A DNA stretch of 64,000 bases from Candidatus Thorarchaeota archaeon (lineage in GTDB: Archaea > Asgardarchaeota > Thorarchaeia > Thorarchaeales > Thorarchaeaceae). Positions 40,165 through 59,536 of this stretch are shown in pieces. The stretch's first letter is position 1; every line of letters begins with the position of its first letter. The DNA lies in the NCBI GenBank assembly GCA_048882045.1, contig JBHLRZ010000008.1, positions 32,001-96,000 on the forward strand. The letters run 5' to 3'. The notes beneath the pieces are model-generated. The model saw only the letters and a program-made list of their open reading frames with translations. It did not search any database and was not told where the DNA came from. The position numbers and the translations under genes are program-made.

Positions 40165-41496
40165 TTACTTGAGTTTGTGTTTCTTGACGAACTCAGTCAA
40201 GACATCGTCCAGATTTGGTCTGCCTATTTCCTGCAGGTCATACTTGACTCTGACATTGGGTTTCTCAATCTTGATTACACGGTTGAGATCGATAGGTGTA
40301 CCAATCACAATTGCTTCAGCATCTGACTTGTTAATTGTCTGTTGAAGCTCGTCCATTTGCTTCTTGCCATAGCCCATAGCTGGTAGGACATCTTCCAGAT
40401 GACTATACTTCTCAAAAGTATCCTTTATGCTTCCAACTGCGAAAGGTCGTGGATCAACAATGAAAGCCCCCGCTTTTCTCGCGGCAATGTAGCCAGCACC
40501 GTAGGGCATTTCGCCATGTGTTACGGTTGGTCCATCCTCAACAACAATGACACGCTTACCTCTGATCTTTTCCATGTTCTCAATTGTGAGAGGCGATGCT
40601 GCATCAACAATCATAGCTTTAGGATTAGTAAACATGATATTCTCCCTGACTTCTTCCACATCCTCATAGTCTGCAGTATCTATCTTGTTGATCACAACTA
40701 CATCAGCCATCCTAAGGTTGGTCTCACCAGGATAGTACGATATCTCATGACCAGGTCTGAGTGGATCAGCAATGACAATCAGTAGGTCTGGCTTGTAGAA
40801 TGGGAAGTCGTTGTTTCCACCATCCCATGTGATTACATCAGCTTCTTTTTCAGCCTGCTCGAGAATCTTCCCGTAGTCTACTCCTGCATAGAGAATGACG
40901 CCCATGTTGATCATAGGCTCGTACTCTTCTCTCTCTTCAATCGTACAGCGATACTTGTCTAAGTCTTCCAGTTTTTCGTACCTTTGAGCAATCTGCGTAG
41001 TAAGGTCCGGATCATATGGCATGGGATGTCTGATGTTCACAGGTTTCAGTCCCATGTCAACAAGAATCTGATTGACTCGCCTCGATGTCTGACTTTTTCC
41101 GCAACCAGTTCGGACTGCACAGACTGCAACAACGGGTTTGTTGCTCTTAATCATCGTGAGGCTTGGACCCATAAGTCGGATGTCTGGACCAAGACTATTG
41201 ACCCATGCAATCTTGTTACCGACCACCTCGTAAGGAAGGTCTGAGTATGCAAGGATACATTGTTCAACATCAAATTCTTTGATGAGATCGGGTAGCTTCT
41301 CTTCAGGGTAGATCTTTATTCCCTTGGGATAGAGTGGTCCCGAGAGTTCTGGTGGATACATCCTGTCGCCAATTCCAGGTATCTGCTCAGCTGTGAATGC
41401 AACAACATCATAGTCATCGTTGTCGCGAAAATACGTGTTGAAGTTATGGAAGTCGCGACCAGCTGCTCCCATGATAATTACTTTCTTCTTACTCAT
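40165..41496 (-). CDS. arcE: Arginine synthetase (ArcE)-like P-loop protein (often labelled cyclic 2,3-diphosphoglycerate synthetase/GTPase)
   Basis: GAAGRDFHNFN, AVRTGCGKSQ (P-loop), RHPMPY, EEREEYEP, WDGGNND, EDGPT..HG, PAMGY motifs. Confidence 0.75.
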   Translation of the reverse strand: MSKKKVIIMGAAGRDFHNFNTYFRDNDDYDVVAFTAEQIPGIGDRMYPPELSGPLYPKGIKIYPEEKLPDLIKEFDVEQCILAYSDLPYEVVGNKIAWVNSLGPDIRLMGPSLTMIKSNKPVVAVCAVRTGCGKSQTSRRVNQILVDMGLKPVNIRHPMPYDPDLTTQIAQRYEKLEDLDKYRCTIEEREEYEPMINMGVILYAGVDYGKILEQAEKEADVITWDGGNNDFPFYKPDLLIVIADPLRPGHEISYYPGETNLRMADVVVINKIDTADYEDVEEVRENIMFTNPKAMIVDAASPLTIENMEKIRGKRVIVVEDGPTVTHGEMPYGAGYIAARKAGAFIVDPRPFAVGSIKDTFEKYSHLEDVLPAMGYGKKQMDELQQTINKSDAEAIVIGTPIDLNRVIKIEKPNVRVKYDLQEIGRPNLDDVLTEFVKKHKLK

Positions 41497-41822
41497 CGAT
41501 ATCTCCACTCCAAAAACTAGGGCGGAATTCAGGCACTCGACCCTAGAGTCACGTTAAAAAATGTCTGGTCCAGTCAAATCACAAAACTTCCACTTCCCGT
41601 CTCCAAAAATTCGGAGACTATCCCAAATAATGCTTCCTTCTATTTTTCGAGGGTAATCCGGGGAATTTGCGAATAGTCTTACTAGAATGTCTTTAATGTA
41701 GTATGTGAGTAATACGTCTGATTCATCATTTGGCAACCGTATAATGGAGAAAATACCAACCCATAAATACGAGCTGCGATAAGTATGATGGAAACCGCCG
41801 GGTTTCATGGGGTGCAGGTTTA

Positions 41823-42365
41823 GTGAAGCTAGTCGATCTGGCTCGGGAGTCAGTTAAGGTTCTACAGGAGAGAGGGGAGGAAGGAATCCGAAGTGACATT
41901 CTAGCTGAAACCCTAGATACCCCGAAACGACGTGTATATGACATAATCGCAGTATTGAAAGCTCTTGGACAAGTCACTACAACGCGGAAATTCGATGGGA
42001 CCATTGTAACCTGGGTCGATATGACTAAGGACTATGTACCTCGTCAAGCTCATGATGACCTGAAAGTCGTGATGGACCAGGAGAGTAGTGAACGTAAGAA
42101 ACTCCAAGTGCAGGTTGCTGAGCTCAAAGAGCAGGTTCGTATTTCCAAGTCAAAACTACGACGAGAGACTCAAGCTGTAGAAACCTCAGACAAGACAGAG
42201 TTCAATACGACTCAGATAAGAGTCCGAGCACTCTCAAGCAACGGAGTGAAGCGTGTTGAACATTCTGGAATAGAAGTCCTTATTGAAACTCACGAACCAG
42301 GAATGGTCGTTGATCCCGAAGAGAGAAAGGTCGATGAACAGGAAGCTATCATCAAAAACCTGTAA
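41823..42365 (+). CDS. E2F/DP-like winged-helix transcription factor with coiled coil
   Basis: LAETL..PKRRVYDIIAVLKALG...TW, then a heptad coiled coil and a beta-rich segment. Confidence 0.75.
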   Translation: MKLVDLARESVKVLQERGEEGIRSDILAETLDTPKRRVYDIIAVLKALGQVTTTRKFDGTIVTWVDMTKDYVPRQAHDDLKVVMDQESSERKKLQVQVAELKEQVRISKSKLRRETQAVETSDKTEFNTTQIRVRALSSNGVKRVEHSGIEVLIETHEPGMVVDPEERKVDEQEAIIKNL

Positions 42366-42374
42366 GCTCTTTTC

Positions 42375-42764
42375 TCAATTGCCTAGCCGTATTGTTACAA
42401 GACTTCCTCTTCTCACATTTGCCAGTTGATCTAGTTCGGAATCGTCAGAAGTTACCCTACCAAGTATGTTCACCTGACTGAAGGAATTTCCATCATTGAG
42501 GTAGATATCAAGAGTGTCTCCTAAGGGTTGATACGCGATATCTGCCCGTTTGACTTCCTTAGTTGGTTTCGCATTCCCTTTTGATATACCCAGAGTAATC
42601 TTCATCTCTCCACGCATCATAGCTGCACGACCTTCGAAGGGTAGTAAGGATTTGATTTCCTCAACAATAAGCGGCGCATAGATCCTGTTGATTACACCCT
42701 TGAGAATGAGTCCTCCCTCGAAGACAAAGTCAAGGATTAGGTCAGTATCACTAAGGTCTACCAT
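42375..42764 (-). CDS. Cyclophilin-like fold protein (DUF369 type)
   Basis: AP...I...LPF.G, EV...DIAY.P, VNILG motifs. Confidence 0.78.
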   Translation of the reverse strand: MVDLSDTDLILDFVFEGGLILKGVINRIYAPLIVEEIKSLLPFEGRAAMMRGEMKITLGISKGNAKPTKEVKRADIAYQPLGDTLDIYLNDGNSFSQVNILGRVTSDDSELDQLANVRRGSLVTIRLGN

Positions 42765-42847: not shown

Positions 42848-43990
42848 TTGGAGAGGATTGGGCTGGCCTCCACCAAACTCGACATAGCATTTGTAGTAGA
42901 CACAACGGGTTCCATGAAGGACGATATTCAAGCAGTCAGGAATAGTCTCTTTGATATTGTCGAACATATCACTAAGAAGACTGAAGGTCTTGAGATTCGG
43001 TTCGGAGTCGTTTCATACCGCGACCATCCACCTCAAGATAGGTCCTACGTCACGAAAGTCTTCGACTTTTCAGAGAACATCAAGAGGGTGCACAAACTCA
43101 TATCCTCTTTGAATCCATCTGAGGGTGGTGACACTCCTGAGGCTGTGGCAGATGGGCTCTTTGATGCTCGTACCAAACTCTCGTGGGAAACCGATGCATA
43201 CAAGGTCTTACTCTTGGTAGGTGATGCTCCTCCTCATGGAAGAAAATACAACAGCATTGGTGATGATTATTTCCCTGAAGGCTGTCCGAAGGGGCATGAC
43301 TCAATCGAAGAAGTGCAGCAGTTCCGAAGGGATTATGGGAGTACAATGTTTATCTTCGTCTGTGGATGCAACCCTCTGGTAGAGGAGTCATTCAGAAACA
43401 TTGCCTCCTCTGTTGAAGAAGGCAAGTACTACTCTTTGTTAGAAGCTCATGAGCTTCCTGAGGCTATCATAGGGATCCTTGAAGGAGTTAGTGACCTCAT
43501 TGAGGCTGATAGGAGAGTCCTCTCCTATTACGAAGCCAATGATGGCGTCTTTGATATGGGTGAGGCTGCTTCAAATCTTTCACTTGAGCTGAGAGCGTTG
43601 AAAACCAGTCTATCTCGATTACTCGAGCTAGGACGAATTTCTCGATGGCCAAAAGGAAAACCACTTTCAACCTCTTCCACCGACCTAGCAATTGAACTTG
43701 GAGCTGTACCAAACAATATCGTTGCAGGAAAAGCCTTCAATTATTCAATTCGAGTGAAGAATCCTGGTGCAACAACAGTTGGCATTAGGGTAATCGCTTC
43801 TCTTGTTACATCTGATGGTGTATCCGAGGTCACAAATGAACATCATGAGATAAGTTCGAAGTCCGACCGAATTCTCGAGCTGAACTTGATACCTATGACT
43901 GACACGAAAGGAAAGGCTAGACTACGTGTCGAAGTCTTTTATGGGTCCCGATCTGTTGCTACGGAAATTTACGACACACGAATCTTTTGA
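42848..43990 (+). CDS. vWA-domain protein with winged helix and Ig-like C-terminus
   Basis: Intact MIDAS-like DTTGSM, YRDH, GGD.PEA, GDAPPHG; HTH-like segment; final beta-sandwich. Confidence 0.85.
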   Translation: MERIGLASTKLDIAFVVDTTGSMKDDIQAVRNSLFDIVEHITKKTEGLEIRFGVVSYRDHPPQDRSYVTKVFDFSENIKRVHKLISSLNPSEGGDTPEAVADGLFDARTKLSWETDAYKVLLLVGDAPPHGRKYNSIGDDYFPEGCPKGHDSIEEVQQFRRDYGSTMFIFVCGCNPLVEESFRNIASSVEEGKYYSLLEAHELPEAIIGILEGVSDLIEADRRVLSYYEANDGVFDMGEAASNLSLELRALKTSLSRLLELGRISRWPKGKPLSTSSTDLAIELGAVPNNIVAGKAFNYSIRVKNPGATTVGIRVIASLVTSDGVSEVTNEHHEISSKSDRILELNLIPMTDTKGKARLRVEVFYGSRSVATEIYDTRIF

Positions 43991-44003
43991 TGGAGGATAC
44001 CAG

Positions 44004-45128
44004 TTGAAACTGCATGTACGAAGAGGACGGAACCAACAAGGTCTGTCTTTTCTTTCATCAGACGTGTCTTCTGGTATTTTTGAAATGAAACTCGATGAGA
44101 GGCGAGTAATCCTTGATGTCCGGTCATCAGAGAAGGTACCTTCTGGTACAGTGATTATTGATTCTCGCATTTCTGATCTTTTCGGTATACCTGATGATAG
44201 TGAGGTTTTCCTTAATCCAGTGTCCAATAAACAACCATCCTGTACTGAGGTCCATCTGGGAGTAGTATCGACTCGAGGCTTAGATAACGAGAAAGTCGCC
44301 CGTGCAATGTCCAAAAGAATAGATGATTTTCGAGAGTACCTCGAGGGTCTGATTATCTTTGAAGGACAGTCTTTTACAATTGAGGATTTCGGAATCAACT
44401 TGTATGTCTTCTCTTTGAATCCTAAAGATTCCTCAACAGGTTCTGCACAAATCACATGGGATCAGCTTCTGAAAATCCATCTTGCTCCTATGGATTCTCG
44501 TCCATTCAACCTCTGCATACTCGTTGAAACTGCAGCTGCTTCTCAGATTGTTGATGTAGCAACCCATGATGGACAGATTTCTCGTCTTCAAGCCATACGG
44601 TATGCAATCTCAACATTGGAACAAAAACTGACTTTGCAAAAAGACATGTTGTTTTCTGGATTTGCATTCTCTGATGAAATAGTCATATTCAGAACATTTG
44701 ATTCTCAGACCGGTGAAGAAACAGGAGTGTCTACTTTTCATTCTCCTTCACTATTGAGATCATTTGGCGAGTGGATTACCGAATTCGCTTCAGGAAACGA
44801 AAAATCTCCCTCTAATCCTGGAGAGGCTCTCAAACAGGGACTGGCCATAGCCTCCTCTCATACAGAAATAAATGGACTACAAACTGCCATTTTGTTTTTC
44901 TCCAGCGGGGTGTATTCAGCAGGCCAAAATCCTGTTAAGATTGCACGAACAGTGGGTAATTCTGAAAAGCTGGTATTATTCGCAATTTCTATGGGATCTG
45001 GCTCAGTCACTGACCTCATGGAAGCAGTTGCAGAAGAGGGAGGTGGTGCATTTATCCACATTGACAGAGATGAGAAGACTGAAACTATTGTTGAAACTAT
45101 TGAAAAGACACTCTTCAGTAAGAGGTGA
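44004..45128 (+). CDS. CDC48-N-like plus degenerate vWA protein
   Basis: Aligns by eye to 50794-52110 (PFN.C, SRL.A, DSQTGE). MIDAS replaced by ETAAAS. TTG start at 44004 behind GGAGG. Confidence 0.75.
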   Translation: MKLHVRRGRNQQGLSFLSSDVSSGIFEMKLDERRVILDVRSSEKVPSGTVIIDSRISDLFGIPDDSEVFLNPVSNKQPSCTEVHLGVVSTRGLDNEKVARAMSKRIDDFREYLEGLIIFEGQSFTIEDFGINLYVFSLNPKDSSTGSAQITWDQLLKIHLAPMDSRPFNLCILVETAAASQIVDVATHDGQISRLQAIRYAISTLEQKLTLQKDMLFSGFAFSDEIVIFRTFDSQTGEETGVSTFHSPSLLRSFGEWITEFASGNEKSPSNPGEALKQGLAIASSHTEINGLQTAILFFSSGVYSAGQNPVKIARTVGNSEKLVLFAISMGSGSVTDLMEAVAEEGGGAFIHIDRDEKTETIVETIEKTLFSKR

Positions 45129-45133
45129 AAGCA

Positions 45134-46264
45134 ATGAGCAGTGATATCATAACTCGACTTCAAGCACTTTACCATAGTGGAGACATCACGGGTTATATCC
45201 ATTCAAACCTCCCCGTAGACTTATTGAAAACTGGATGGATCGAAAAGGGGCTGCTTTCAAAGGGGATGAGAGGTCAACTTCGTGACAAACACAATCAAGA
45301 ATCTCTTATCATTCCTGCTGATAGATTCACACGACTTACAAGAGATATGACTAATACTGGCTATGCAAGCATTGCTATCATCGGCTCAAAGGGTCTAAGA
45401 GAGGGCAAATTCGCCGCGATGGTCTATGAGAACAAAAATGTCCAATCCCTGATTGCATTTCGCATCCAACACAAAACGCCTCTTGAGATAATCCAACTCT
45501 TCCTACAAGTGCTAGGTGGAGAAATATCCAACCTTCGTGATGAACCAAACCTCGACTATGTGGAACAAATCAGAATCGACACAGGTGAAAGGATTGTCGA
45601 AGACGCTTTGGTCATTTCTCTCCCGAAGGAAATTATGAAAATTTCGGAGTGGATCAAAGCTACAATCCAAGAGAAGTCTTCTGAAAGTATTCTTCTTAGA
45701 CACGGATCTTCGAAGGAGCTAGTTGTGTTTTCAGCACTTCTTACCAGATGGGTGACTAGTCTGGAGCTTTTCCGTGAAACTCGGTCAGCTATAGCAGCAT
45801 GTGTGTTCGTCAAAAAGAAGCAAATGGATGTCTGTTTCTGGGACTCGTCTCAAAAGATTGCTTCTTTTGCTAGTATTGGAAGTGCCAATATTGAAGAACT
45901 CGGAAGGAAGTATCTTATCCCCCTTTGGATGGTTCCTGGTGATAGTCTGAAACCACTCCCTAAAAAGAAAGAAGTAGTAGTAGAACCTCGACTAAGTAAG
46001 ACGACAAAATTGCAGAGAGAAGAAGAAACTACAGTTGATACAGGGATAAAGGTATTGAGTCGCCGTTTGGATCAATTATCTGGTCTAGAGTCTAAATTGG
46101 AATCCCTCGAAACAAGATTACAAACAAGTTCGAACACACAGTCTTTGGACAAGGGAAGCCTCGAAGCTCTGCAGAGCAGGCTATCAGAAAACATCGACAG
46201 AATAGAAATCCTTAGCAAACGCCTGATTGAGCTGGAGAGACGAATCAAAAAGATATCGGGGTGA
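45134..46264 (+). CDS. Hypothetical protein with C-terminal coiled coil
   Basis: Operonic ORF of about 376 aa; heptads in the last ~70 aa. Confidence 0.75.
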   Translation: MSSDIITRLQALYHSGDITGYIHSNLPVDLLKTGWIEKGLLSKGMRGQLRDKHNQESLIIPADRFTRLTRDMTNTGYASIAIIGSKGLREGKFAAMVYENKNVQSLIAFRIQHKTPLEIIQLFLQVLGGEISNLRDEPNLDYVEQIRIDTGERIVEDALVISLPKEIMKISEWIKATIQEKSSESILLRHGSSKELVVFSALLTRWVTSLELFRETRSAIAACVFVKKKQMDVCFWDSSQKIASFASIGSANIEELGRKYLIPLWMVPGDSLKPLPKKKEVVVEPRLSKTTKLQREEETTVDTGIKVLSRRLDQLSGLESKLESLETRLQTSSNTQSLDKGSLEALQSRLSENIDRIEILSKRLIELERRIKKISG

Positions 46265-56923: not shown

Positions 56924-58249
56924 ATGACTGAAAACGAATCGAAACAATCACTATGGCCATATCTCCTCTTTCTCCCCTCGGAACAGGAAGCTAGGGACGA
57001 GTTTGTGCGTTCAGTGCTTTCATCACGGGTGGCAAGGAGTGTCTTATCTCGATTTGGCACTGATGGTCCAGTGCTGCAAAAGGATTTGGTTGAAAAACTA
57101 CCTCACTCAAACAAGAGTATCCTCTCCTACCTCTCAACTCTTCGTAAGTTTGGTTTGATAACAACAGGATCAACGATACGCCATGGAAAACGTGTGGTCT
57201 ATCATGAACTGACAAAAAGTGGATGGGGTCTTGCTCGGTTCTACTTTGAAGGTCTTCCATCTGATGTTGAGGAACTCACAGCTTTTCTGCTCGAGGACTA
57301 CCTAACACGCTTAACCACCTTGTATCGGGGACAAGGAATTTCTGAAACGATTCTCTTTGAGATATTTGCCCGGATGCGTGCTAAGGCAATACTTGAGGGG
57401 TCGAGAAAGTATTCGACTCCAGCATTTGTTCTATTTGGCGCCTCAGCATACAATACTAGGCTTGAGTGCGACAAACTTCCAGAGGCAGGTGGTCTCACGA
57501 GTTGCAACTCACCAGACAGAACATCAGGGGGCCCTACCATTGATCTTGCCATGGCTCTAGCAAATGATGGGTATGAAACATCTTTGATATCATCGGTGGG
57601 AAATGATATGGATGGCTGGAACATCATTACCAATCTCATTGAAGGTAATATTGATGTTGGTCATATTGTCGTCGAAGATGATAAACGCACGAATGAATCA
57701 ATAATCATTGATGAGGGCGATAAAGGGTCGCGAACTCTCGTCACTGTAAGTCCCACAACAGCATTATCGATAACATCTCCTGAACAGGTTCCCTGGAGTA
57801 TTGTTGAAACCTCGAAAGTTGTCTATATTGGAGAGGTTTTTGTAGAGGTGGCTGCTACTATTGCTGCTCATGCCAAGGTAACAGGTATTCCAACAGTATA
57901 CAGATGCTCAGTGCCATACTGGGAGGAATTTGGACTAAAGGGTCTCAGGCCAGTCCTTTCACAAGTTGATACCCTTATCATATCGAATAGGGCGTGGAAT
58001 TGCCTCAAGAAGAATGTTGGACCACGACCTGTGTCGAGTATTAGAAAAGTATCAGATACAGCACTAGTGATTCGCCAATCAAGAAATCAGTATCAGTTGA
58101 GTCGGGTTGGTGAAAAGGATCTTTTATTTTCTAGCAAGAGTGAGTTCCCAGACATCACTGAACGCTTCACTGCTAATTTGATGATCAAAATTGCAGACGG
58201 GGTGGATACAGAAAAAGCTGTGGAGTATGCTATTAGTGCTGAGAATTAA
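56924..58249 (+). CDS. Winged-helix DNA-binding domain fused to a degenerate PfkB/ribokinase domain
   Basis: N-terminal HSNKSILSYL..L...GLI...YHELTKSG; PfkB GG...A.ALA..G, VGND..G; the DTxGAGD motif is replaced by DITERF. Confidence 0.8.
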   Translation: MTENESKQSLWPYLLFLPSEQEARDEFVRSVLSSRVARSVLSRFGTDGPVLQKDLVEKLPHSNKSILSYLSTLRKFGLITTGSTIRHGKRVVYHELTKSGWGLARFYFEGLPSDVEELTAFLLEDYLTRLTTLYRGQGISETILFEIFARMRAKAILEGSRKYSTPAFVLFGASAYNTRLECDKLPEAGGLTSCNSPDRTSGGPTIDLAMALANDGYETSLISSVGNDMDGWNIITNLIEGNIDVGHIVVEDDKRTNESIIIDEGDKGSRTLVTVSPTTALSITSPEQVPWSIVETSKVVYIGEVFVEVAATIAAHAKVTGIPTVYRCSVPYWEEFGLKGLRPVLSQVDTLIISNRAWNCLKKNVGPRPVSSIRKVSDTALVIRQSRNQYQLSRVGEKDLLFSSKSEFPDITERFTANLMIKIADGVDTEKAVEYAISAEN

Positions 58250-59201: not shown

Positions 59202-59536
59202 TAGTTGTTAAAGGTTTCAAACCGTGGTCATATCGCCGAAATCATTTCGAATGTTCTACGAGTATATATCATGTTCTCGTTGTTGTGTCCGGTTACCAAC
59301 CAGCGGCCGAAAGTTTGCATTTATAGCTTTGCCTTAGGAATAGTTAGATTTCACTTTTTTTTCGCCAATATAATGATTTTCCTTCAGAATACGGCAAATG
59401 TCGAACAGGAATTCCGTGATGATGTGTTCGGCAAAGGCCGAAACACCCCCGTCTTTTAGAATCGCTTCTCATATTTCTCTATCTTTAAAATAGAGGGCTA
59501 TGAATATTTTATAATCGTAGAATATTGGCGCGAAAT

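Follow-up and report, generated by a model that had tools for sequence, protein, structure and literature searches.

The stretch analysed here (the window) comprises 64,000 nucleotides of a Candidatus Thorarchaeota archaeon genome (GenBank assembly GCA_048882045.1, contig JBHLRZ010000008.1, positions 32,001 to 96,000), with a G+C content of ~44%. At positions 41823..42365 of its forward strand lies an open reading frame (ORF) of 180 aa plus stop that encodes an E2F-like protein. It consists of a winged-helix DNA-binding domain (DBD; residues 1-67, 41823..42023), a predicted coiled-coil helix (residues ~72-123, 42036..42191), a beta-rich C-terminal domain of four predicted strands (residues ~127-167, 42201..42323) and a short predicted C-terminal helix (residues 172-179, 42336..42359), all on the + strand. 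The GTG start codon is well placed, because most relatives share the start at 41823 and open with M-K-L-V (M/V-K-L-V) there. The host assembly, 93% complete, spans 3.63 Mb in 93 contigs. Searching 5.8 billion proteins yielded 183 clusters of relatives, nearly all of 180-200 aa, aligning end to end at 60-99% identity and belonging to Thorarchaeota where named; each of the 183 carries the precomputed Pfam label PF02319. With more than 180 clusters of full-length relatives and the Pfam cut-off passed, the features of the ORF therefore exceed chance. Full-length relatives share 50-99% identity within Thorarchaeia and 20-38% in Hel-, Baldr-, Odin-, Hod- and Ranarchaeia.

In eukaryotes the switch at the core of the G1/S transition consists of E2F/DP together with Rb. 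Asgard genomes encode E2F homologues, as described in a review of the archaeal cell cycle (PMC7617429). Eme et al. (2023, Nature 618:992, Supplement 4.1.5 'E2F/DP') reported homologues in most Asgard groups with conserved base-contacting residues, and described the homology as confined to the DBD and the dimerisation domain as lacking. Their table of eukaryotic signature proteins lists Thorarchaeia entries of 180-183 aa, which share DBD and tail motifs with the protein studied here; one is ~90% identical by eye, and the loci DZG_bin1.115, AMARA_8 and E44_bin77, also compared here, are among them. The gene family (arCOG02749), with close orthologues, and the Asgard DBD itself are already published. 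To this same family we add two points: a conserved module of coiled coil and beta domain that has the layout of the eukaryotic dimerisation region and is predicted to join two chains as a homodimer, counter to the statement that the protein 'lacks the dimerization domain', and a set of candidate target sites, with exact E2F consensus sites under selection before the genes for thymidylate synthase, MCM and a 259-aa protein across an entire family within Thorarchaeia. The idea of an archaeal E2F regulon thereby becomes directly testable.

The E2F_TDP profile (PF02319) matches residues 6-56 with 33.8 bits against a curated cut-off of 25.7, and a scan of the protein's own genome gives 35.5 bits. 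All 22 members of a diverse family alignment match the same profile (best E 2e-10). R36, R37, Y39, D40 and W64, which make up the RRxYD recognition helix (RRVYD, residues 36-40, in this protein) and the wing tryptophan, are invariant in sets of 22 and 28 diverse members, and the RRxYD residues align to the RRIYD of E2F4 and E2F8. In a comparison with an alignment of eukaryotic E2Fs using hhalign, residues 1-72 were aligned with a probability of 98.2% (E 5.9e-14). A DBD-only profile was run against 177,635 distinct PDB sequences and placed E2F8 (3.8e-13), E2F4 (2.4e-8) and DP2 (3e-4) at the top; the next match followed at E >= 0.1, with nothing related. The family profile, searched against 1.84 billion representatives, matched 51 proteins, comprising full-length relatives from Hel-, Ran- and Baldrarchaeia and bona fide E2Fs with both E2F_TDP and E2F_CC-MB, the latter at E 6e-6 to 1e-3. 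Residues 1-65 were modelled by AlphaFold2 as three helices and a two-strand wing. Judged by these profile comparisons, residues 1-67 form a true winged helix of the E2F/DP family, homologous to the eukaryotic E2F DBDs (E2F4, 1CF7; E2F8, 4YO2; PF02319) and sharing their RRxYD helix and wing tryptophan. The first-pass annotation of this DNA had seen a mix of E2F-like and DP-like features, which comparison with the PDB sequences did not bear out as an even one: scores of 52 and 37 bits to E2F against 24 to DP place the DBD nearer to E2F than to DP, as far as sequence similarity tells.

Winged helix-turn-helix (wHTH) folds are common to several families, and the protein might be an ordinary archaeal regulator of the TrmB or MarR type whose RRxYD-like helix arose by convergence, with no special tie to E2F. 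The TrmB family (PF01978) is likewise an archaeal wHTH family with a dimerising helix and an RVYD-like recognition helix, 16 of the 22 family members show sub-threshold TrmB Pfam matches (best E 2.2e-4), Foldseek with the full-length monomer returned generic wHTH rows in which the wHTH families are not told apart, and some sources label relatives as TrmB or riboflavin kinase. However, the TrmB score of the protein itself is 13.8 bits, under its cut-off of 25.6, which leaves E2F_TDP ahead by 20 bits and alone above its cut-off. No TrmB chain occurs among the PDB profile matches up to E 10, where E2F8, E2F4 and DP2 stand on top, the reverse search with the family profile reaches true eukaryotic E2Fs, and PF02319 matched 0 of 14 control prokaryote genomes at E 1e-5. 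The TrmB sugar-binding domain is absent, and the TrmB C-terminal domain (PF11495) gave no match in the protein. On the E2F_TDP score, the PDB profile and the reverse search we reject a TrmB identity, which is very improbable and close to refuted; the earlier assignment to E2F/DP rather than TrmB holds, and the ORF and the motifs quoted for it, with the invariant RRxYD helix and wing tryptophan, are present.

The tail behind the DBD (residues 68-180) is as conserved as the DBD and is kept from Thor- to Baldr-, Hel- and Ranarchaeia, with a block F..T..LRVRA.S..G..V..SG.EV.IE...G..V.P that extends across Asgard classes. No Pfam family matched it in the protein or in the 22 members, and in the ESM Atlas a feature search gave no usable match and a shape search only the family's own cluster. 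AlphaFold2 predicts one long helix at residues 74-123. In a monomer model built on a shallow alignment the tail has a predicted local distance difference test score (pLDDT) of ~50; from an 88-sequence alignment of residues 68-180, AlphaFold2 reached a pLDDT of 84.7, with one 42-residue helix (positions 7-48 of that model), four strands (~133-164, pLDDT 75-92) and a short helix. The coiled coil followed by a beta-rich segment that had been read from the sequence is thus what the models display. A homodimer was predicted with ESMFold2 at an ipSAE of 0.50 in three runs, compared with 0.01 for the best of 3 controls. In the benchmark, 20 of 30 proteins solved as same-chain pairs and 1 of 23 single-chain structures attained this value; because the dimer model here used a custom alignment, the counts apply only approximately. 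Contact agreement between the dimer runs was at least 91%, and partner pLDDT did not fall below 78. Identical residues of the two chains, spaced as heptads (77, 80, 84, 91, 94, 98, 101 and 105), form the tightest contacts, and the coiled coil is therefore modelled as parallel and in register; the modelled interface also takes in residues 123-166 of both chains. The tail is accordingly described here as a predicted dimerisation module that would pair two chains as a homodimer, in the same layout as the marked-box region, and the earlier suggestion that the protein is probably homodimeric gains from the model.

Whether this module shares its origin with the coiled-coil/marked-box (CC-MB) module of eukaryotic E2F and DP is a separate matter. 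The earlier annotation spoke of a 'full architecture', and a reading built on this would make the coiled coil and beta domain homologous to CC-MB but diverged past recognition, so that the DBD-CC-MB layout would be pre-eukaryotic, homodimeric and older than the duplication into E2F and DP. Order and sizes agree with the CC-MB heterodimer (2AZE, 5TUU, 5TUV; PF16421, PF08781): at the same place after the DBD there follow a parallel coiled coil of ~50 residues and a four-strand beta module that joins the chains in the predicted interface. When the family profile is aligned to true E2Fs with HMMER, the alignments extend into the coiled coil of the latter (query 6-106). Foldseek with the tail model returned 35 of 350,542 chains, and the CC-MB chains of E2F1, DP1, E2F5 and E2F4 (2aze_B, 2aze_A, 5tuv_B and 5tuu_B) are among them, though at E 2-8, none of the 35 being significant. 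In a second look with VIA only E2F CC-MB chains covered the helix plus the beta part (2aze_B: 4.3, 11.1, 88; 5tuv_B: 3.9, 9.7, 85; 5tuu_B: 3.8, 7.9, 87), all below the tool's stated noise level, and they were outscored by proteasome Rpt helices; the wide fold search was dominated by helices. The fold likeness of the tail to the marked box is therefore weak as modelled.

In sequence comparisons, all tests for common descent came out negative. Neither E2F_CC-MB (PF16421) nor DP (PF08781) matched any of the 22 family members. Once the DBD is removed, hhalign of residues 68-180 gave P of 0.17-0.33 when compared with an alignment of 60 eukaryotic CC-MB sequences and of 0.11-0.64 with single E2Fs, the DBD-anchored alignment stops at residue 72, and the tail profile found generic coiled coils only among PDB chains. 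The eukaryotic profile used is shallow, consisting mostly of fish E2F3 plus five diverse E2Fs, and holds no DP sequences. The published statement that the dimerisation domain is lacking also speaks against the idea. Of the 'full architecture', the layout stands, and the homology to CC-MB is unsupported by the Pfam, profile-profile and profile-PDB comparisons. Common descent of the tail and CC-MB is in our estimate possible yet doubtful, and the fuller reading of a diverged, pre-duplication ancestor with the complete layout is held just as tentatively. We prefer to regard the pairing module as a dimerisation device particular to this family that matches CC-MB in layout.

Above its cut-off, PF02319 has one match in the host genome. 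The Pfam scan found no DP domain there, and no E2F_CC-MB at the E2F-like gene. RB_A was not found in the genome either, although that model matched none of the control genomes and the absence is weakly tested. Among 151 sampled Asgard genomes 69 contain a PF02319 domain, and six genomes of other Asgard families show two matches; the single copy is thus a trait of this lineage and not of all Asgard archaea, because those six genomes differ, and the earlier claim of a single gene stands for the host genome only. In place of the canonical E2F/DP heterodimer, the one PF02319 gene with no DP partner gene found points to a homodimer, as predicted. At 180 aa the archaeal protein differs from eukaryotic E2F in having no transactivation or pocket-protein-binding tail, and from E2F7/8 in having one DBD per chain. 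It ends 13 residues beyond the beta domain, which leaves no room for an Rb-binding tail, as the first-pass annotation had said. Two metagenomic proteins in our searches combine E2F_TDP with E2F_CC-MB: P0172, of 388 aa, and P0169, of 180 aa on a 694-nt contig, which fits DBD, coiled coil and marked box within the size of the Asgard protein.

Thymidylate synthase and MCM are classical eukaryotic E2F targets. The candidate sites found in Thorarchaeia fit both the eukaryotic E2F consensus TTTSGCGC and the palindrome TTTGGCGCCAAA. In the host genome 21 of 80 copies of TTTSGCGC (26%) fall in the ~10% of DNA outside long ORFs. The thymidylate synthase gene (thyA, PF00303) of this genome has TTTCGCGCG at -96, and in 17 of 18 loci of the same genus TTTGGCGCG is found at -106 to -128 within diverged flanks. 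Outside the genus but within the family, 20 of 25 thyA loci, from 11 of 14 genera, have a relaxed site whose orientation and distance vary, against a background of 1.8% of all genes in the host genome; 20 of the 25 relaxed sites within those 86 kb sit in thyA upstream windows. The single perfect TTTGGCGCCAAA of the host genome lies between an Alg14-like gene and the gene for the 259-aa protein. Across 13 genera, all 30 loci compared have TTTGGCGCCAAA or a close variant of it at 183-285 nt before this gene: 18 are exact, most others differ by one change and three by two or three flank changes, while the protein itself retains only 31-41% identity between genera. For MCM, the host genome shows GGCGCCAAAA at -88, and 13 of 30 family loci, representing four genera, have a relaxed site. 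The two site regions, that of the 259-aa gene among them, gave no match in Rfam and tRNA scans. The conserved footprints demonstrate, on the evidence of the aligned upstream regions, that some factor reads E2F-consensus sites in Thorarchaeia.

Several side observations concern the genes behind these sites. The 259-aa gene, which lies outside the window (G000:C16:64852-65837, locus L225), has a conserved upstream region of ~150 nt in 13 genera, consisting in order of TTTGGCGCCAAA, a TTCATAC...GTATG inverted repeat, an GCTATTTTCTGGATTTGATG block and a TTTATAT box. Its product matches no Pfam family; CENP-L and RdgC emerged as weak leads from the ESM Atlas, which otherwise gave unnamed clusters, and were not trusted. 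The MCM frame measures 1214-1236 aa, and once 2403 aa, in some Thorarchaeia genera, compared with ~700 aa elsewhere (L269, L272, L276, L280, G095:C103), which suggests inteins or fusions. Within the window TTTSGCGC has two matches, at 59528-59535 (-) and 57434-57441 (+), a count no higher than chance, since 38 of 100 shuffles attain it; one of the two matches is located 326 nt upstream of a DUF92 membrane-protein gene.

Our interpretation, to which we assign a probability of about 0.7, is that the protein is a homodimeric E2F/DP homologue of the published family that acts on GCGC-core sites and is a predicted regulator of DNA-precursor and replication genes. Its N-terminal winged helix, homologous to the eukaryotic E2F/DP DBD and closest to that of E2F, would be brought together in pairs as the parallel coiled coil and the interlocking beta domains at the C-terminus join the two chains. 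Such pairing would let the two RRxYD recognition helices sit together on one palindrome with a GCGC core, as in TTTSGCGCSAAA. In Thorarchaeia the protein likely acts on three promoters: that of thymidylate synthase, that of MCM (in some genera) and that of the conserved 259-aa gene. One regulator would thereby link DNA-precursor and replication genes. That the E2F-like protein itself reads these sites is probable because its RRxYD contacts are conserved and the specificity of eukaryotic E2F is known. The comparisons show the homology of the domain and the conservation of both the family and the DNA sites; dimerisation, site reading by this protein and the direction of regulation are what we infer.

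A number of points weigh against this interpretation. The dimer is a model and no measurement, and the link from protein to site would rest on the specificity of eukaryotic E2F and on the conserved contact residues. No relaxed E2F-type site occurs within 320 nt upstream of the E2F-like gene itself in any of 75 loci, and none was found before two Cdc6 genes, PCNA, ribonucleotide reductase and two PolB genes. A site at a TFB gene (G000:C46) was rejected, being not conserved and placed in a structured leader. The genus contains 34 occurrences of TTTSGCGCSAAA versus 6 of a reversed control, but genome-wide enrichment was dropped as an argument for the factor, since the excess is also present in an Asgard family without the gene (f9); in another family (f12) the 12-mer TTTSGCGCSAAA falls in a conserved coding motif. 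The palindrome of the 259-aa gene is situated ~135 nt upstream of its TATA-like box, which is far for an archaeal operator. Finally, kin are not independent, and the locus counts overstate the support. As an observation apart, the host genome encodes six TFB (TFIIB-like) paralogues with 47-57% mutual identity, two pairs of them in tandem, and relatives encode 3-8.

A further step would see in the DBD/coiled-coil/beta protein the direct ancestral form of E2F and DP, preserved as a homodimer, and in the control of thyA and MCM through TTTSGCGC the archaeal root of the G1/S transcription programme of eukaryotes. We consider this unlikely; if true, the protein layout would be older than eukaryotes, and so would part of the regulon.

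The gene adjacent to the E2F-like gene encodes a cyclophilin-like protein (PF04126, 129 aa, Pfam 37.2 bits) at 42375..42764 on the - strand; the two are convergent, tail to tail and 9 nt apart. It adjoins the E2F-like gene in nearly every Thorarchaeia locus and, outside Thorarchaeia, in 8 of 12 loci. By coordinates the adjacent convergent pair occurs in eight GTDB families (Thorarchaeia plus seven others, including Hel, Odin, Baldr and Hod lineages) and is not found in three others. The cyclophilin-like gene is the sole neighbour retained at greater depth, the surroundings otherwise changing, and its product is a possible functional partner of the E2F-like protein. This adjacency bears on a different role for the tail, in which it would sense a metabolite or a protein such as the cyclophilin-like neighbour in addition to dimerising, after the manner of the Streptococcus regulator BusR. 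With the full-length model, Foldseek ranked BusR chains highest (E 2.8e-3, template modelling score 0.24-0.31); their GntR-type wHTH, coiled coil and RCK_C domain follow the same three-part layout, and a tail as conserved as the DBD would suit a sensing function. The matches are weak, however, with a root-mean-square deviation of 13-18 A, and extend to layout only: BusR belongs to another wHTH family and has no sequence relation to the protein, its C-terminal fold is different, and the all-beta domain of ~45 residues found here is smaller than RCK_C. The tail's lack of a Pfam match also speaks against this idea, as does the occurrence of the cyclophilin-like gene in families where the E2F-like factor was not found. 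An effector-sensing regulator of this kind is improbable next to the dimerisation device that we favour.

On the other side of the E2F-like gene, a divergent neighbour of 447 aa (40165..41508, - strand) has a weak match to CobW/HypB/UreG-type nucleotide-binding proteins and is syntenic in Thorarchaeia only. The gene order in Thorarchaeia is cpgS-like, E2F-like, cyclophilin-like and von Willebrand factor type A (vWA) genes. In the window a three-gene run on the + strand (42848-46264), comprising a vWA-domain protein followed by two proteins without a Pfam match, is syntenic with the E2F-like gene across Thorarchaeia.

Upstream of the E2F-like gene, an alignment of ~75 related loci revealed a block resembling a B recognition element and TATA box (BRE/TATA-like; ACCAACCCATAAATACG, 41754..41772, + strand), in which ACAAAC..TAAATA is held at constant distance from the gene and which probably represents its promoter, as judged from this alignment. 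A GGGGTGC block 8-14 nt before the start codon (41809..41815, + strand) is kept in nearly all Thorarchaeia loci and resembles a putative ribosome-binding site. When the leader (41780-41822) was compared with loci L003-L016, an insert able to form a hairpin, GTGTGCTCATTTGAGCA, was seen in close relatives, located after the TATA-like box and before the start codon; the window is without it, and the junction there reads GAAACCGCCGGGTTTC. This palindrome was considered as an autoregulatory site and rejected, because it represents a deletion relative to kin and the polarity is wrong. Most Thorarchaeia genera keep TTCG[GAC]AAAATCG just 5' of the BRE/TATA-like block, ~85-105 nt before the E2F-like start (loci L017-L067). 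This motif was not seen in the window's 120 nt upstream of the gene, and in the closest relatives its version is GATAAATCG. The sequence TCGNAAAATCG is rare genome-wide, with 8 copies.
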